Origin: Candidatus Omnitrophota bacterium
GTDB lineage: Bacteria > Omnitrophota > Omnitrophia > Omnitrophales > JACQLI01
Reading direction: 5' to 3'
Assembly (NCBI GenBank): GCA_016179745.1
Contig: JACPCP010000008.1
Span: forward strand, 34,103 to 98,102
Length of the DNA stretch: 64,000 nt
Position 1 is the stretch's first letter, and every line of letters starts with the position of its first letter. A model generated the notes under the pieces. The model ran no database searches. It saw nothing but the letters and a program-made list of their open reading frames with translations, and was not told the origin of the DNA. The position numbers were made by a program, and so were the translations under genes. Below, piece after piece: positions 4,885-43,437 of the stretch.

Positions 4885-5449
4885 GACCCCCGCTATGTTA
4901 AAAGTGGGGCCTCGCATTCGGGAAATCCGGAAGGGTAAAAAAATTACTTTGATCGAACTTTCCAAACAAACCGGCATTGCCCAGGCCACGCTCTCCCGCA
5001 TCGAGACGGGCCGCATGATCGGAACCGTGGAGAGCCATCAAAAGATTGCGGACGCCCTAGGCCTCACCCTCGCCGCGCTTTACGCGCCGCTCGACCGGCG
5101 TTACGAGGAAGTCGCGGTCTCAAAAAAGGAGACGCCCCGAAAGCTGGTCCATCAGGGCCGGGGCTGTCAGATCGAGCTCCTGACGCAGGAAGTCACCAAG
5201 AAAAAGATCACGCCCCTTTATGTAACCCTCTCCGGAAGCTCAAAGACCGCGTTGGAGGAAAACGAGCGGGGTGTCGAGAAATTTATTTGGATCCAGGAGG
5301 GTGAAGTGGAGGTCAGCCTGGAAAAGGAAGTGCATTCTTTAAAGGAAGGGGAAACGCTCTACTTCGACGCCTCCCTCCCCCACCGGATCACGAATCCCCG
5401 GTCCAAAACCGCGAAGGTCTTCGTCGCGGTCTCTCCCTCAAAAATTTAA
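4883..5449 (+). CDS. XRE-family HTH transcriptional regulator with C-terminal cupin domain
   Basis: N-terminal IREIRKGKKITLIELSKQTGIAQATLSRIETGR is an XRE helix-turn-helix. C-terminal EKFIWIQEGEVEVSLEKEVHSLKEGETLYFDASLPHRITN is a cupin fold. The start may instead be ATG 4895 (MLKVGPRIREIR), because ATG 4883 lies inside the TATAAT box. Confidence 0.85.
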   Translation: MTPAMLKVGPRIREIRKGKKITLIELSKQTGIAQATLSRIETGRMIGTVESHQKIADALGLTLAALYAPLDRRYEEVAVSKKETPRKLVHQGRGCQIELLTQEVTKKKITPLYVTLSGSSKTALEENERGVEKFIWIQEGEVEVSLEKEVHSLKEGETLYFDASLPHRITNPRSKTAKVFVAVSPSKI

Positions 5450-5459
5450 ACCCTCTAAA

Positions 5460-5789
5460 TCAAATTTGGGTCTCGGCCTTGAGCCACTGAAGGTAGGCGG
5501 AGTTCGCCCTGGCACAGGGAAGCGCCACAATCTCCGGCACTGAATAGGGATGATTTTTTTCGAGGACCTGTTTCAGACGGGGAAATAAGGCATTCCGGGT
5601 TTTGAGAATGAGGAGGTATTCCTTTGCCCGTTCGATTTTTTTCTTCCACCGGTAAACCGATTCGATCGGCCCCACCTGTTGGATGCAGGCGGCGAGTCTT
5701 TTTTTGAGAACGAGTTCTGAAAGGCGGCGCGCGTGCAAGCGGTCCGGAAGGGTCGTGAGGACAATCAGGAAGGAACTCGGCACGGACAA
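5460..5789 (-). CDS. cutA: Divalent-cation tolerance protein CutA
   Basis: 109 aa. The pattern LAACIQQVGPIESVYRWKKKIERAKEYLLILKT..HPYSVPEIVALP matches the CutA1 family. Confidence 0.85.
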   Translation of the reverse strand: MSVPSSFLIVLTTLPDRLHARRLSELVLKKRLAACIQQVGPIESVYRWKKKIERAKEYLLILKTRNALFPRLKQVLEKNHPYSVPEIVALPCARANSAYLQWLKAETQI

Positions 5790-39495: not shown

Positions 39496-40392
39496 TCAAT
39501 TCAAGCCTAACTCGTTGGGGTGCCTGTAGTTAACGAGGCGGGCCGTGACCGAACCCAGAACGGGGACCTTCACGGTCATTTTAAGAGGAATGCGGCGTGA
39601 GTCGAGGGAGAGCCACCCCCGGATCTTTCCCCGCTTCACAAAGATCCCCTGAAACTGGATTTCGGGCTCCACCTCGACCGCTTCAAATTCCGGAAAGCCC
39701 TTTAATTGGACTTTCGTCTCCCTCAAAACCTTTACCCGAAGACTCCAATTTTTTTCGTCGGCGTTGACGGGAATAGAAATTTCCGTCCCGGGCTGAATCT
39801 CCTGCAGGCGGAACCAGAAACCGCACGAAAGCTGGTCCTGAACGTCCGGCGGAATTCTCATTTCCTTCCGGGAACCATTTTTGCGGGAGTAATAAGCGGC
39901 GGTGTGATTCACCTGATCGTATTCCATCACCTCGTCCGCCCGGTAACGGCCCTCCCGCAGGATTTTTTCATAACGGAGCGAGTGCAGCCTCTCGACATCA
40001 ATATAACTGTGGTGGGTGTCCCGCACCTTATAAATCCAGTCGATGATCCGAGCGGAACGAACCTGAATTTCAACGTGGTAGGCGTCCCGGTCACGCACCC
40101 TGACGATCTCCTTCACCTCGGCCTCTCCCCGGCCGACTTCGATCCCGAGCAGGCGGACGGAATAAACCAGTTTTTCCCCGACAAATAATTTTTGGGGAGG
40201 CGTTTCCTCGGCGGAAGCGTTTGGAGCGGCGAGAAGAAGGCAAAAAAAGAGGAAGCTAGCAGGCTGTTTGATAAATTCGTACCCCGTTTTGACCCCCTCT
40301 CCCTCCCCTCTCCCCCTGTGGGGGAGAGGGTTAAGGGTGAGGGGAAGACTAGGTACGAATTTGTCAAACAAGGTACTAGCGGCCGTTGACAC
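39496..40392 (-). CDS. DUF3108-like exported protein; N-terminal region interrupted by a palindromic element
   Basis: Beta-rich protein (LVYSVRLLGIEVGRGEAEVKE...) resembling DUF3108. The signal-peptide h-region ASFLFFCLLLAAPNASA begins only at residue ~44, because residues ~9-41 are encoded by the repeat at 40268..40367. The start (ATG 40392) is uncertain. Confidence 0.65.
   Translation of the reverse strand: MSTAASTLFDKFVPSLPLTLNPLPHRGRGEGEGVKTGYEFIKQPASFLFFCLLLAAPNASAEETPPQKLFVGEKLVYSVRLLGIEVGRGEAEVKEIVRVRDRDAYHVEIQVRSARIIDWIYKVRDTHHSYIDVERLHSLRYEKILREGRYRADEVMEYDQVNHTAAYYSRKNGSRKEMRIPPDVQDQLSCGFWFRLQEIQPGTEISIPVNADEKNWSLRVKVLRETKVQLKGFPEFEAVEVEPEIQFQGIFVKRGKIRGWLSLDSRRIPLKMTVKVPVLGSVTARLVNYRHPNELGLN
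40268..40367. repeat. About 100-bp nested palindromic element, copy 1
   Basis: Outer arms TTGATAAATTCGTACC (40268..40283) and GGTACGAATTTGTCAA (40352..40367). Middle arms CCCCTCTCCC and GGGTGAGGGG. Inner 11-bp stem CCCTCTCCCCC-TGT-GGGGGAGAGGG (40306..40330). Confidence 0.9.
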
Positions 40393-41491
40393 AATTTTTC
40401 CAAAAATTTTTCCGGTCCAGAAATACCTTCACGGCCTCGGGAGGAAGCTCCGTCAGGCATTCCCGGTCCACGCAGGCCGAATTGTAGCGAAAATTCGAGT
40501 AGCACGGCCGGCACGGCAGGTCCCTTCTCATCACCGGGACGGCACGAGGATATGCTGGGAAAGGACCATAAACTTTGGGGTCGGCAGGACCAAAAAGGGC
40601 CACGAGCGGAACATGAAGGGCGTGCGCCAAGTGGACAAGGCCGCCGTCATTGGCAAGGAGGAGCCGGGCCCCCTCCAAAATCGCCGCCGCTACGCCGAGG
40701 GAAACTTCCCCGCAAAGATTGATGACTTTAAAGTCCGGCGGATTTCCCGAATCAGACGCCAAAGTCTGTTCCATTGCTTCGCCGAGACTCCGCTCTCCTT
40801 TGCTTCCCAGGATCACGACCGAGCCGAAATTGACCCGCTTCCGGAATTCCAAAAGGGCCTGGGCAAAATAACAGGCGGGCCAGCGCTTAAAATGGGCGTC
40901 TTTTCCCCAGGACTCCCCGCCGCCCGGTGCTACAGCCAAATAAGATTCATCGGCAGGCCGATGAATCTCCCACGCCCGCTGCCGGTCTTCCTCGGAAACG
41001 TAAAACTCAAGAAAGGGCTCTTCGATCTCAAGACCCACGAGCCGCCCGAGCTCGGCGTAGAATTCGACGACCGAGCGGCCCTCAAATCCCCTCGGCAGAG
41101 AAATGGATTGGGTCAAAAACGTTCCCCGGTGTTTGAAATTAAAACCGATCCTTCTTGGGATCCCAAGAAAGACGCCGCTGTAAAAAGCGGTCTCCCGCTG
41201 GAGCGACAAATCGATCAAAAGGTCGTAGCGGCCTCTGAGTTTTTTCCACCAGAAAAAAATTTCCCTGAGGAGCTCCCTCCTTCCGAGCGAGTGCCACCGG
41301 TCCTTGTCGAGGGTGAAGATTTGGCCGGCGTGAGGGTTATTCCGAAAAATGGCCTCCGTCCGGGAACCGAGCAGAAGATCGACGGACTCGACACTCGGAA
41401 GGGTCCGGAGCGCCCGGAGGAGCGGCGTCGTAAAAAGGGCATCGCCCAGGCCGTAGGGCTGAACGATCAAAACTCGACGGATGGAATTCAT
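40376..41491 (-). CDS. Glycosyltransferase family 9 (heptosyltransferase-like), copy 1
   Basis: 371 aa. RVLIVQPYGLGDALFTTPLLRALR, and the C-terminal LLANDGGLVHLAHALHVPLVALFGP plus a Cys-rich tail. Confidence 0.88.
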   Translation of the reverse strand: MNSIRRVLIVQPYGLGDALFTTPLLRALRTLPSVESVDLLLGSRTEAIFRNNPHAGQIFTLDKDRWHSLGRRELLREIFFWWKKLRGRYDLLIDLSLQRETAFYSGVFLGIPRRIGFNFKHRGTFLTQSISLPRGFEGRSVVEFYAELGRLVGLEIEEPFLEFYVSEEDRQRAWEIHRPADESYLAVAPGGGESWGKDAHFKRWPACYFAQALLEFRKRVNFGSVVILGSKGERSLGEAMEQTLASDSGNPPDFKVINLCGEVSLGVAAAILEGARLLLANDGGLVHLAHALHVPLVALFGPADPKVYGPFPAYPRAVPVMRRDLPCRPCYSNFRYNSACVDRECLTELPPEAVKVFLDRKNFWKNCVNGR

Positions 41492-42518
41492 GCCAAAAAT
41501 TTCACGGCCTTTTTAAAAACATCGTCCACCGAGACCACGTCCAGACACAAAAAATTGATCCGACAGTTGTGGGCCAGACAAACGGGGCAGGCCACCTCTT
41601 TATGAATGACCCTCCCCTCCTCCCCCAAGGGCCCCCAGCGCCTCGGACTGAGGCCGGTCAGGTTCCTCCCGAAAATGGAGATCACCGGCGTGCCAACAGC
41701 CCGAGCCAAATGAACCGGCCCGGAATCGTTTGAAATGAGGAGCCGGGCGCCCTTGAGGAGCCAGCCCAGCAAACCGATCGAAATTTTTCCGCTCAAGTCA
41801 ATACGACCGGAAACCCGAATTTTTCCTGCAGGCGGTCGGCGAGCCGGGCGAAACGCTCGGCGGGCCAGACCTTGGAGGGACAACTGGCGCTCGGGTTCAG
41901 GACCCCGTAAGACCTTGACCCCTCACCCCCACCCTCTCCCCCTCGGGGGGAGAGGGCAAAGGGTGAGGGGGACAAATTCCGAAGTAGAAATTCAAGGGAG
42001 ACACGGTCCCGCTCCTTTAACGGGAAATAGGTCCGGAGTTTTTCCGGCGGTTTGACGTTTAAAAATTTTAAAAGATCGAAGTTGTATTCGGATTCGTGCT
42101 TCAAGCCCTCCCCTTTGCGGTCTTCAATTGTGTGGGTAAGGGCCCACGCATTTTTCTTCCGGTAACCGATTCGGACCGGAATGCCGGCCAGCCAGCTCAC
42201 CCAATGCATCCGGTTCGTCGGGTGGAGGTGGACAACCGTATCAAATCGTTTTTCGGCCAGCCGGCGGGCAAAGCGAAAATTCCCGAACCCGCCCTTCTCG
42301 CCCCCCCGCTTGTCGTAAAGAATCACTTCATCAAGAAAGGGGTTCCCCTCCACGAGCTCCCGGTTTTCCAGAAACGTGAGGCATGCCAAATGGGCTTTCG
42401 GAAATCTGAGACGGAGCGCTTCAAAAACAGGGGTTGAGAGAAGGAGGTCGCCCATTCGGTCCGTGCGGGTGATCAAAATCCGGGAGGGATCCCGGGATTC
42501 AATCAATGCTGGATTCAT
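41488..42518 (-). pseudogene. Glycosyltransferase family 9, copy 2: split by internal deletion and frameshift, and carrying an in-frame palindromic element
   Basis: The N-terminal half is in ORF 41793..42743 (from ATG 42518: MNPALIESRDPSRILITRTDRMGDLLLSTPVFEALR...VWPAERFARLADRLQEKFGFPVVLT-stop). The C-terminal half is in another frame (ORF 41488..41883: IDLSGKISIGLLGWLLKGARLLISNDSGPVHLARAVGTPVISIFG). The ~20-27 aa that paralogs have between VVL-G and the L-x-G-K/E motif are missing. Confidence 0.75.
41902..41979. repeat. Palindromic element, copy 2 (78 bp) inside the GT9 copy-2 reading frame
   Basis: CCCCTCACCC (41919..41928) pairs with GGGTGAGGGG (41961..41970). The inner stem is CCCTCTCCCCC-TCG-GGGGGAGAGGG (41932..41956). 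Flanks ACCCCGT..GACC and GACAAATTC are shared with copy 1. Confidence 0.9.
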
Positions 42519-43437
42519 CAAGAAGCTCCCGGCAGACGGCGTAGACCTTTTCCGGAGCAAGGTCCCGGAGAGAATCGGAATCCGGATTCCGGACAATCCG
42601 CCAAATCTCGTTTTCTCTTCCATATTTTTCGGGCTCGGTCGGGCCGAAGACCGCCACCACGGGACGGCAAAGCTCGTAGCCCAGGTGCATGCAAGCGCTG
42701 TCGTTACTGAGGACGAGGGCTGCTTCCGAGACGAGCGCCGCAAGTTCCCTCAGGGTCAACTCACCGGCCAGACTGACCACACGCCGGGGGTCCACCCCGG
42801 AAATTTTTTCGGCAAGCGGCGCCTCCCTGGAATCTCCCACGGCCGCAAAATTGAAGGAAGAGGTCTCCGCCAGGCCCTTGACGACCTCGGCAAAATTTTC
42901 GACCGGCCACCTCTTGGCCTCGCTCCCGGCGCCGGGCGCCACCACCACGCACGGCACCGAGGGCAAGAAACCTTTCGCTTTGAGTTTTTCAGAAAGGGCC
43001 GCTTCCTCCTCTTTCGAGAAAAAATCAAACTTCACGCTGCCGCCCGGCTTGAGATTCATCATCGGTAAGATCTCCAGATGACGGTCCCGGGCACGCTTCG
43101 AACGGTAATGCCGGAAAATGGGGCTCCGGCGCTCGGCCCGGACGAAAAAGGGCAGGGCGGAATTCCGCAAATCCACGGCCCACTCGTAAAATTCCTCTCG
43201 AAGGACCCGGACCAATCTGAGTTTGTGGGCGAGACCCGCCTGCTTGTCATAGACGAGGAGACGGTCGATCAAACGGCTTTTCTCCAAAAGCGGCGCCGCC
43301 CGGGGTCCCGCCACCACCGTGAGCCGGGCCCAGGGAAAAATCGAACGTAGGGAGGCAATGACCGGCGTCGTCAGAATGACGTCGCCGATATTGCTCAGCG
43401 TGACAAGGAGGATTGAGATTCTTTCCGGGGTCGCCAT
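42499..43437 (-). CDS. Glycosyltransferase family 9 (heptosyltransferase-like), copy 3
   Basis: 312 aa. ISILLVTLSNIGDVILTTPVIASLR, APGAGSEAKRWPVENF and LVLSNDSACMHLG. Confidence 0.88.
   Translation of the reverse strand: MATPERISILLVTLSNIGDVILTTPVIASLRSIFPWARLTVVAGPRAAPLLEKSRLIDRLLVYDKQAGLAHKLRLVRVLREEFYEWAVDLRNSALPFFVRAERRSPIFRHYRSKRARDRHLEILPMMNLKPGGSVKFDFFSKEEEAALSEKLKAKGFLPSVPCVVVAPGAGSEAKRWPVENFAEVVKGLAETSSFNFAAVGDSREAPLAEKISGVDPRRVVSLAGELTLRELAALVSEAALVLSNDSACMHLGYELCRPVVAVFGPTEPEKYGRENEIWRIVRNPDSDSLRDLAPEKVYAVCRELLDESSID

Follow-up and report, generated by a model that had tools for sequence, protein, structure and literature searches.

How a GC-rich palindrome can come to lie, in frame, between the two lobes of a glycosyltransferase is the question raised by a 64,000-nt stretch of DNA (hereafter, the window) from the Candidatus Omnitrophota metagenome-assembled genome (MAG) GCA_016179745.1, contig JACPCP010000008.1, positions 34,103-98,102. 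On its minus strand the window carries a lipopolysaccharide (LPS)-core operon in which five GT9 domains are accompanied by a DUF3108 gene and a gene for an RfaE-like kinase. Two copies of the palindrome lie in this operon, copy 1 in the DUF3108 gene and copy 2 in a GT9 gene (heptosyltransferase-like, PF01075), where a preliminary description of the locus had drawn attention to it. The finding is real, and that first interpretation was largely right but incomplete; the copies are known kinds of element in a new variant. We consider it probable (about 70%) that copy 2 is a repeat of the BoxC/PIT/TMECO class, selfish and non-autonomous, which is tolerated at the hinge of the enzyme, was imported by recombination and is related to a MITE (miniature inverted-repeat transposable element).

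The core of copy 2 is a nested GC-rich palindrome of 53 nt (41919..41971), a motif of the BoxC/TMECO type that is readable on both strands. It consists of a C-box CCCCTCACCC (41919-41928), a hairpin CCCTCTCCCCC-TCG-GGGGGAGAGGG with an 11-bp stem and the loop TCG (41932-41956), and a G-box GGGTGAGGGG(G) (41961-41971), and the G-stem and the G-box are mirror-symmetric with one mismatch. When the 25-nt hairpin pattern was searched with at most three mismatches, it matched twice in the window (40306 and 41932) and not once in 100 shuffles; by chance, no such hairpin is expected in the window. RNA folding gave -54 to -62 kcal/mol for copy 2 (z -3.1 to -3.8) and -83 to -85 kcal/mol for copy 1 (z about -9.7), and no Rfam family matched anywhere in the window at gathering thresholds. 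The palindrome first described at 41902-41979 was confirmed in its sequence, but the whole of that 78-bp span is not element, as its outer parts, such as TACG.GGTCC (Pro-Tyr-Val-Val) and CGGAAT (Arg-Asn), are gene sequence. The flanks ACCCCGT and GACAAATTC, which had been given as common to both copies, hold only in part: GGGGTCAA beside the G-box is truly common, whereas TACG.GG and GGAAT are gene sequence that occurs also in orthologs without the insert, and one matching flank base is a substitution specific to the window. ACCCCGT and GACAAATTC were thus partly rejected as proof of a common element end.

The core resembles the BoxC/PIT/TMECO intrastrand-triplex motif of Holder et al. 2015 (PMC4666352), where earlier BoxC/PIT work by Bergler, Bachellier and Hoyne is cited and the consensus is given as CCCTCNCCC-N3-6-GGGNGAGGG-N3-GGGNGAGGG. 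That study counted 3610 copies of the motif across 262 proteobacterial genomes and 23 copies in E. coli K-12, all of them intergenic, and found the motif without a link to mobile elements and associated with local rearrangements. The window copies fall within its general limits (stems of 6-15 nt, loops of 1-6 nt, one mismatch) and are off the strict consensus on loop length only, both strands fitting with a loop 1 of 7 nt and a loop 2 of 2-4 nt; the 7 nt of loop 1 result from counting the stems as 9 nt, while in fact they span 11 bp and enclose a loop of 3 nt. The homologous L009 insert conforms to the strict consensus (4946-4978, minus strand, and 5048-5082, plus strand). When GTDB species genomes were scanned for CCCTCTCCCC-N3-5-GGGGAGAGGG, at least 120 loci were found, and those listed belong to Alpha-, Gamma- and Deltaproteobacteria, Planctomycetota, Acidobacteriota, Verrucomicrobiota, Omnitrophota, Atribacterota, Peribacteria and others. 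Among the matches listed, a GGG(T/A)GAGGGG box stands on one side of most copies, and the strict consensus fits 69 of 138 hairpins, a slightly relaxed form 95. BLAST of the core against E. coli matched 925 genomes at 84% identity over 44 nt, and none of the matches listed falls on an annotated feature; an example is the ytfQ-ytfR spacer (CCCCTCGCCCCTTCGGGGAGAGGGTTAGGGTGAGGGGG), and the E-value is weak (0.1) owing to the short query. Judged by its similarity to the E. coli copies, the core belongs to the known BoxC/PIT/TMECO family of triplex motifs. In the ytfQ-ytfR spacer (L171:190-370) the G-box is followed by GACAAAC, and copy 2 has GACAAAT at the same place. The BoxC copy in this spacer adjoins sequences that look like repetitive extragenic palindromic (REP) elements (GCCGGATAAGGCG..CGCATCCGGC).

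On the minus strand, the open reading frame (ORF) 41793-42743 runs through copy 2 and translates it as ..EFLLRNLSPSPFALSPRGGEGGGEGSRSYGVLNPSASCPSKVWPAERF.., as had been read at first. Alignments with the close relatives L010 and L011 and with 31 orthologs delimit a replacement tract at 41910..41973 (minus strand), which encodes SPSPFALSPRGGEGGGEGSRS between the last helix of the N-lobe and the first strand of the C-lobe. Where L010 and L011 have about 22 nt, the window has about 64 nt and has thus gained a net 42 nt, and in the protein 23 residues take the place of 9, a net gain of 14 aa. The gain is a multiple of three nucleotides, as the preliminary description had it, whereas its figure of about 25 extra residues comes down to 14 in the ortholog comparison. 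Across the five GT9 domains of the locus, whose alignment had been proposed there, none of the four paralogues has a stretch corresponding to copy 2. Measured from the end of the N-lobe motif to NPSAS in 80 orthologs with recognisable anchors, the linker is 42-45 aa long in 77, compared with 57 aa in the window and 86 aa in P0003, a protein of the relative L009 (GCA_964373135.1). The insert is carried by two of the 80 orthologs, and that of P0003 comprises 147 nt with three hairpins, as against one in the window, at the same junctions.

Alignments with the PDB relatives 3TOV and 1PSW extend to either side of the linker gap. In the AlphaFold2 model of P0003 (mean predicted local distance difference test score, pLDDT, 83; predicted template modelling score 0.81), the GT-B fold was modelled at pLDDT >90, and the insert appeared as low-confidence coil between the helix 178-191 and the strand 242-246, which is the hinge of the two Rossmann lobes. 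All three element-encoded segments of P0003, namely the linker insert and the N-terminal and C-terminal tails, were coil with pLDDT of about 40-60. The orthologs and the model agree that the extra stretch sits at the inter-lobe linker of the GT-B fold, where it had been placed from the start, and the peptide of the homologous P0003 insert is predicted to be a disordered loop at this hinge.

Over most of the host gene the window is closest to L011 (about 93% identity), followed by L010 (about 86%) and L009 (about 72%). In gene nt 450-557, directly 5' of copy 2 and into it, identity to L011 and L010 falls to 50-60%, and 42 of the 49 informative sites are L009-like. These sites belong to a recombinant tract of about 170 nt (gene nt ~450-620; 41900..42069, minus strand), which has copy 2 at its 3' edge and one recombination breakpoint at copy 2. 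Since the run of L009-like sites is confined to nt 450-557, copy 2 entered the lineage by recombination from an L009-like donor. According to the ortholog consensus (..SL..LLRNL..), the tract is of the common type and the window's close relatives are of a derived type, which fixes the direction of the transfer. On this sequence evidence, copy 2 was not transposed into the host gene within this lineage, and came with about 110 nt of flank from an L009-like relative.

What kind of element this may once have been is suggested by copy 1, which lies 1.6 kb from copy 2. Copy 1 is a MITE of 118 bp (40259..40376), longer than first described, with the same GC core (hairpin 40306-40330) between terminal inverted repeats of about 25 nt (GYAGGCTGTTTGAYAAATTCGTACC), in which about 20 of the first 25 nt match between the ends. 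It is bordered by a TA target duplication inside CTAG (40257-40258 and 40377-40378) and reads C-TA-[118 bp]-TA-G, and excising the 118 bp with one TA gives exact colinearity with the empty site in L010, where the ATG of the DUF3108 gene overlaps the stop codon of the upstream GT9 gene. PMC2170065 and the Tenzen references in it describe IS630-family elements as inserting at TA, duplicating the TA and preferring CTAG. In the window, the CTAG target includes the TAG stop (40376-40378) of the upstream GT9 gene (40376..41491, minus strand, 371 aa), and this stop was rebuilt from the duplicated TA and the first G of copy 1. The DUF3108 gene (39496..40392, minus strand) hosts copy 1 near its 5' end; together with one TA the element makes up 120 nt, in frame after about codon 7, and adds 40 residues ahead of a hydrophobic, signal-peptide-like segment, with the DUF3108 domain unaffected. 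The ancestral ATG of this gene is ACG in the window, and the gene probably starts at the GTG two codons upstream. Of the six frames of copy 1, four are open, and the same four are free of stops in all full-length copies seen.

The same GC core was found in two further MITE copies. One, of 142 bp (L169:4170-4311), reads CGC-TA-[142 bp]-TA-GCG inside CGCTAGCG and has an extra inner hairpin of 28 nt, CCGCCAGAGGCGGATCCGCCTTCGGCGG; the other, of 98 bp with a truncated right end (L170:3108-3205), has TA on both sides. Both lie between operon genes, where they interrupt the stop codon of the gene upstream at its TA (TAG and TAA), so that each of the three copies seen with terminal repeats is placed on a stop codon. 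A length divisible by three was considered as a design rule and not upheld; copy 1 (120 nt) and the L169 copy (144 nt) fit, the L170 copy (100 nt) does not, and the copies are too few for a decision. When metagenomes were scanned with an 18-nt pattern of the terminal repeat, 36 of the 37 matches were chance or coding, and only L136 was homologous. There, TA-GTAGGCTGTTTGATAAATTCGTACCCGGTTT matches the terminal repeat of copy 1 in 30 of 33 nt and lies 78 nt upstream of a frameshifted IS630-family transposase (NF033545, 117.8 bits against a cut-off of 100). The peptide encoded by the MITE, compared with 1.84 billion representative proteins, matched two small ORFs, both in GCA_964373135.1, and it is their DNA that contains the L169 and L170 copies of the MITE. 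Considering its terminal repeats, its TA duplication and the IS630-like end, we take copy 1 to be a real mobile element, and the MITE would have been mobilised by an IS630 transposase. In a conserved metagenomic gene (L138, L140, L141, L149, L150, L153, L159, L160 and L162) we observed a palindrome, CTGTTTGACAAATTCGTACCGAAGTTTGTCAAACAG, that encodes LFDKFVPKFVKQ and matches the terminal repeat exactly over 18 nt; as a homologue of the terminal repeat this gene was set aside, the likeness being striking and yet taken as chance. A separate observation concerns a MAG labelled Pedosphaera parvula Ellin514 (L090:800-1120), where two copies of the motif stand about 160 nt apart near GTTTGGAAACTTCTCACC and GTTTGGAAAATTCTTACC, which bear a loose likeness (12-15 of 18 nt) to the window's terminal repeat; the pair may represent a related MITE family in Verrucomicrobiota.

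In its core, copy 2 hardly differs from the L170 MITE, down to the TTT of the spacer and the CGA of the loop, and beyond the G-box copies 1 and 2 have GGGGTCAA in common. The right junction of copy 2 is a TA within a Tyr codon that is present in all orthologs, and on its left side 21 gene nt are missing. The similarity in the core and next to the ends suggests that copy 2 is derived from the MITE. In L009, one GT9 gene holds three composite elements (L009:4271-4425, 4930-5090 and 5575-5680), which are inverted pairs of the motif with a spacer of about 30 nt. They sit at the start of the gene, where the element supplies a TTG start codon, in the linker, and in frame at the C-terminus, which leaves intact the ATGA in which stop and start overlap with the next gene. 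Hairpin copies number two in the 64-kb window, seven units in the 6.3-kb L009 and none in the syntenic L010 (21 kb). A further L009 copy, at about 2231-2265, separates the EF-G gene from the first GT9 gene.

Based on these observations, the following course of events may be proposed. In these Omnitrophota, the core is the middle of a small MITE with IS630-type ends, which goes into TA sites, with a preference for CTAG and often on a stop codon; copy 1 is a full element of this kind. A version free of terminal repeats would have entered the GT9 linker in an L009-like ancestor; presumably the MITE inserted at the TA of the Tyr codon and later lost its ends by deletion, and only in-frame products survived. 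Homologous recombination would then have brought copy 2 and its flank of about 110 nt to the lineage of the window. There, copy 2 would persist because selection spared only in-frame, stop-free versions, and its peptide, rich in Pro, Ser, Gly and Glu, would form a disordered loop at the permissive GT-B hinge without the need for any gain to the host; the insert would be neutral for the enzyme. The repeat also seems to destabilise its neighbourhood through expansions, collapses and nearby deletions, considering that L009 has three hairpins where the window has one, that a 67-nt deletion lies 100 nt away and that Holder et al. linked the motif to rearrangements.

Several points weigh against this reading. 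The structural evidence comes from P0003, with its homologous but larger insert, and not from the window protein, and translation of the insert is predicted from its open frame. Copy 2 has no terminal repeats, as judged from alignments of its region with orthologs and scanned copies, and shows TA at its right junction only. Copies with terminal repeats amount to three, and the IS630-like end that matches belongs to L136, an unclassified metagenome contig of 1.3 kb, and not to these genomes. Copies of the hairpin were counted in the window, which has only two. Furthermore, the host GT9 gene is frameshifted in the window, and relaxed selection on a decaying gene is possible for this assembly; this concern is weakened because four sister assemblies keep the gene intact.

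The hairpin could instead act as a nucleic acid, either as an mRNA structure that tunes translation or decay of the LPS operon or as a triplex recombination hot spot that diversifies LPS genes. Such a role would suit the very stable structure of the hairpin, the clustering of the L009 elements at the gene junctions and the linker of one operon, the recombination breakpoint at copy 2 and the link of the motif to genomic instability (PMC4666352). However, the close relatives L010 and L011 have the same operon without any copy, and both the sequence and the number of hairpins differ between the window and L009. A terminator-like T tail is absent, which rules out an intrinsic terminator, and the introduction of PMC4666352 mentions earlier work in which the motifs had no promoter, terminator or polymerase-blocking activity in vivo. 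We therefore regard a nucleic-acid role as unlikely. An adaptive extension of the hinge, which would change lobe movement, partner binding or the substrate range of the heptosyltransferase, appears less probable still. While the insert is placed exactly at the inter-lobe linker, has stayed in frame in two diverged lineages and spread by recombination, the conserved linker length in 77 of 80 orthologs speaks against such a function, as do the low complexity and predicted disorder of the peptide, the threefold difference in insert length between the two carriers, and the fact that unrelated proteins, and also the termini of the same gene, carry peptides of this kind. Regulatory or adaptive roles of copy 2 are thus possible but unsupported.

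The reading that there was no insertion at all, and that the stretch is either an ancestral linker lost elsewhere or an artefact or chimera of assembly, has been largely refuted and is given very little weight. It was prompted by flanks that are partly gene sequence beside the core, by the chimeric nature that MAG assemblies can have and by the odd 67-nt deletion in the window. Against these stand an identical sequence in four independent Logan assemblies and the NCBI MAG, the restriction of the stretch to two of 80 orthologs, and the same DNA repeat elsewhere in the window, in the genome of a relative and in E. coli. Taken all together, these comparisons favour a tolerated, imported and MITE-related BoxC-class repeat.

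The setting of copy 2 in the operon is compact. Each GT9 gene, like the DUF3108 gene, shares 4-43 nt with its neighbours, and the stretch has no intergenic space. The host of copy 2 (41488..42518, minus strand) encodes 365 aa when intact and is split in the window into two minus-strand ORFs, 41793-42743, which holds copy 2, and 41488-41883; the N-terminal 241 aa correspond to the NCBI protein P0036. Eight Logan assemblies from one study hold the locus at about 100% identity, and four of these (L003-L006) have 67 nt more at 41799/41800, which yields the intact 365-aa GT9 protein with an identical element. The frameshifting deletion of the window, relative to L003-L006, has its junction at 41799..41800, between the imperfect direct repeats ATTGATT and ATCGACT and 100 nt downstream of copy 2 in the host gene. 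The contigs L001, L002 and L007 all start at 41754, 46 nt past this junction, and the common start may reflect a polymorphism that breaks assemblies.

Both copies in the window lie inside ORFs and keep the frame, as the preliminary description had stated; the empty orthologous sites show gains of 120 nt for copy 1 and a net 42 nt for copy 2. Since the operon has no intergenic space, finding two of two copies in ORFs is less remarkable. To see how the motif is placed elsewhere, we took 117 evaluable hairpins among the matches listed in the GTDB scan and searched for open frames of at least 80 codons on each side. Such frames spanned 31 of the 117 (26%), compared with 66% of 2360 random positions. 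Most of the 31 spanning frames were discarded as non-coding by their codon-position GC, and long antisense open frames in high-GC genomes were thus mostly rejected as genes. Leaving aside L065, where the copy is upstream of the gene, and L033, L090 and L095 as doubtful cases, at least seven copies, or about 6% of the sample, lie in frame inside Pfam-confirmed genes. One is in the LigA adenylation domain of a Planctomycetota MAG (L030:3173-6157, minus strand) and two are in that of Sphingomonas (L074:128-2365, plus strand). The others lie between or inside the Pfam domains of VgrG from Stutzerimonas stutzeri (L054), an ABC-F protein (L097), an MmeI-type restriction-modification enzyme (L112) and a metallophosphoesterase (L117). 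The LigA inserts of L030 and L074 occupy the same loop, between ..VRTI..P.TL and ..E(I/V)RGEIY.. near Pfam profile position 97/98, which could be either a permissive loop or a target hot spot.

Across phyla the motif family is mostly outside genes, and a preference for genes does not agree with the 26% spanned and the roughly 6% confirmed. The idea of a coding-tolerant mobile palindrome holds for copy 1, which is mobile and stop-free in four of six frames, and agrees with the in-frame copies elsewhere, but not for the arrival of copy 2, which came by recombination. In-frame MITE fusions are known, and PMC10969869 names Rickettsia palindromic elements (RPE), ERIC, QMITE1 and Anabaena MITEs; a limited literature search gave no report of in-frame gene fusions of a BoxC-type motif.

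It is conceivable, though only tentatively proposed here, that BoxC/triplex palindromes are in some phyla the cores of IS630-mobilised MITEs. With most of their frames free of stops, they could seed Pro/Ser/Gly/Glu-rich loops, in frame, in the essential proteins of many bacteria. If true, a process like that of RPE would operate across bacteria, coupled to local recombination, as in the same LigA loop of Planctomycetota and Sphingomonas. To our knowledge, these palindromes have been known for 30 years as orphan repeats without a mechanism of mobility. That the motif occurs here within a MITE, one that has IS630-type ends and is bordered by a clean TA duplication, offers a testable route for the spread of the abundant and unexplained BoxC motifs. 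In-frame palindromic insertion is best known from Rickettsia, and here a GC-rich family is found in candidate phyla and Proteobacteria, including in essential enzymes. For annotation, low-complexity stretches such as ..SP.G.GEG.. in predicted proteins of uncultured bacteria are often repeat-derived, and such repeats can also provide start codons or C-terminal tails. The locus illustrates how, in an LPS-core operon, a repeat can be accompanied by a recombination tract and by a deletion close to it.

Compared with known systems, the window motif shares with BoxC/TMECO the order of a C-rich stem, a loop, a G-rich stem, a short loop and a second G-rich box that mirrors the first. Further likenesses are the presence of more than one copy, with two in the window and seven units in L009, the inverted pairs, the rearranged loci and the near-identical sequence in the ytfQ-ytfR spacer. 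It differs from BoxC in that its stems have 11 bp and not 9-10 bp, that boxes on both sides make it readable on both strands, and that it occurs in Omnitrophota and, by the scan, in many other phyla. The window copies are in frame inside genes, unlike the intergenic copies of E. coli K-12, which is a property of that set and not part of the motif definition. Moreover, the window motif is also the core of a MITE with terminal repeats, whereas in E. coli the motif was found without any link to mobile elements.

The likeness to RPE lies in short palindromic repeats that stand in frame in unrelated genes, at places compatible with the fold, and are translated as added peptides (reviewed in PMC10969869). 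RPE are set apart as repeats of about 100-150 bp from Rickettsia only, with a different organism and base composition and no sequence relation. Nearly half of the RPE copies are in genes, compared with about 6% for the BoxC-type motif among the matches listed here, and RPE have no known IS630-type ends. Copy 1 is in turn like the IS630/Tc1-mariner MITEs, of which RUP of Streptococcus pneumoniae is an example, in being small and non-coding, in its inverted repeats of about 25 nt at the termini, in the duplicated TA within CTAG and in ends homologous to the end of an IS630-family element. On the side of the transposase family, the biochemistry of ISY100 has been described (PMC2170065). The present elements differ from such MITEs in the interior of copy 1, a GC palindrome of the BoxC/TMECO type, and in copy 2, which has no terminal repeats. 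Finally, the GC-rich hairpins recall REP elements and REPINs, and the composites of L009, in which two inverted motifs flank a spacer, are comparable to REPIN doublets. REP elements and REPINs are mobilised by RAYT transposases and have a conserved 5' GTAG; neither a RAYT gene nor this GTAG was seen here, where no search aimed at them was made, and the ends of copy 1 point to IS630 instead.

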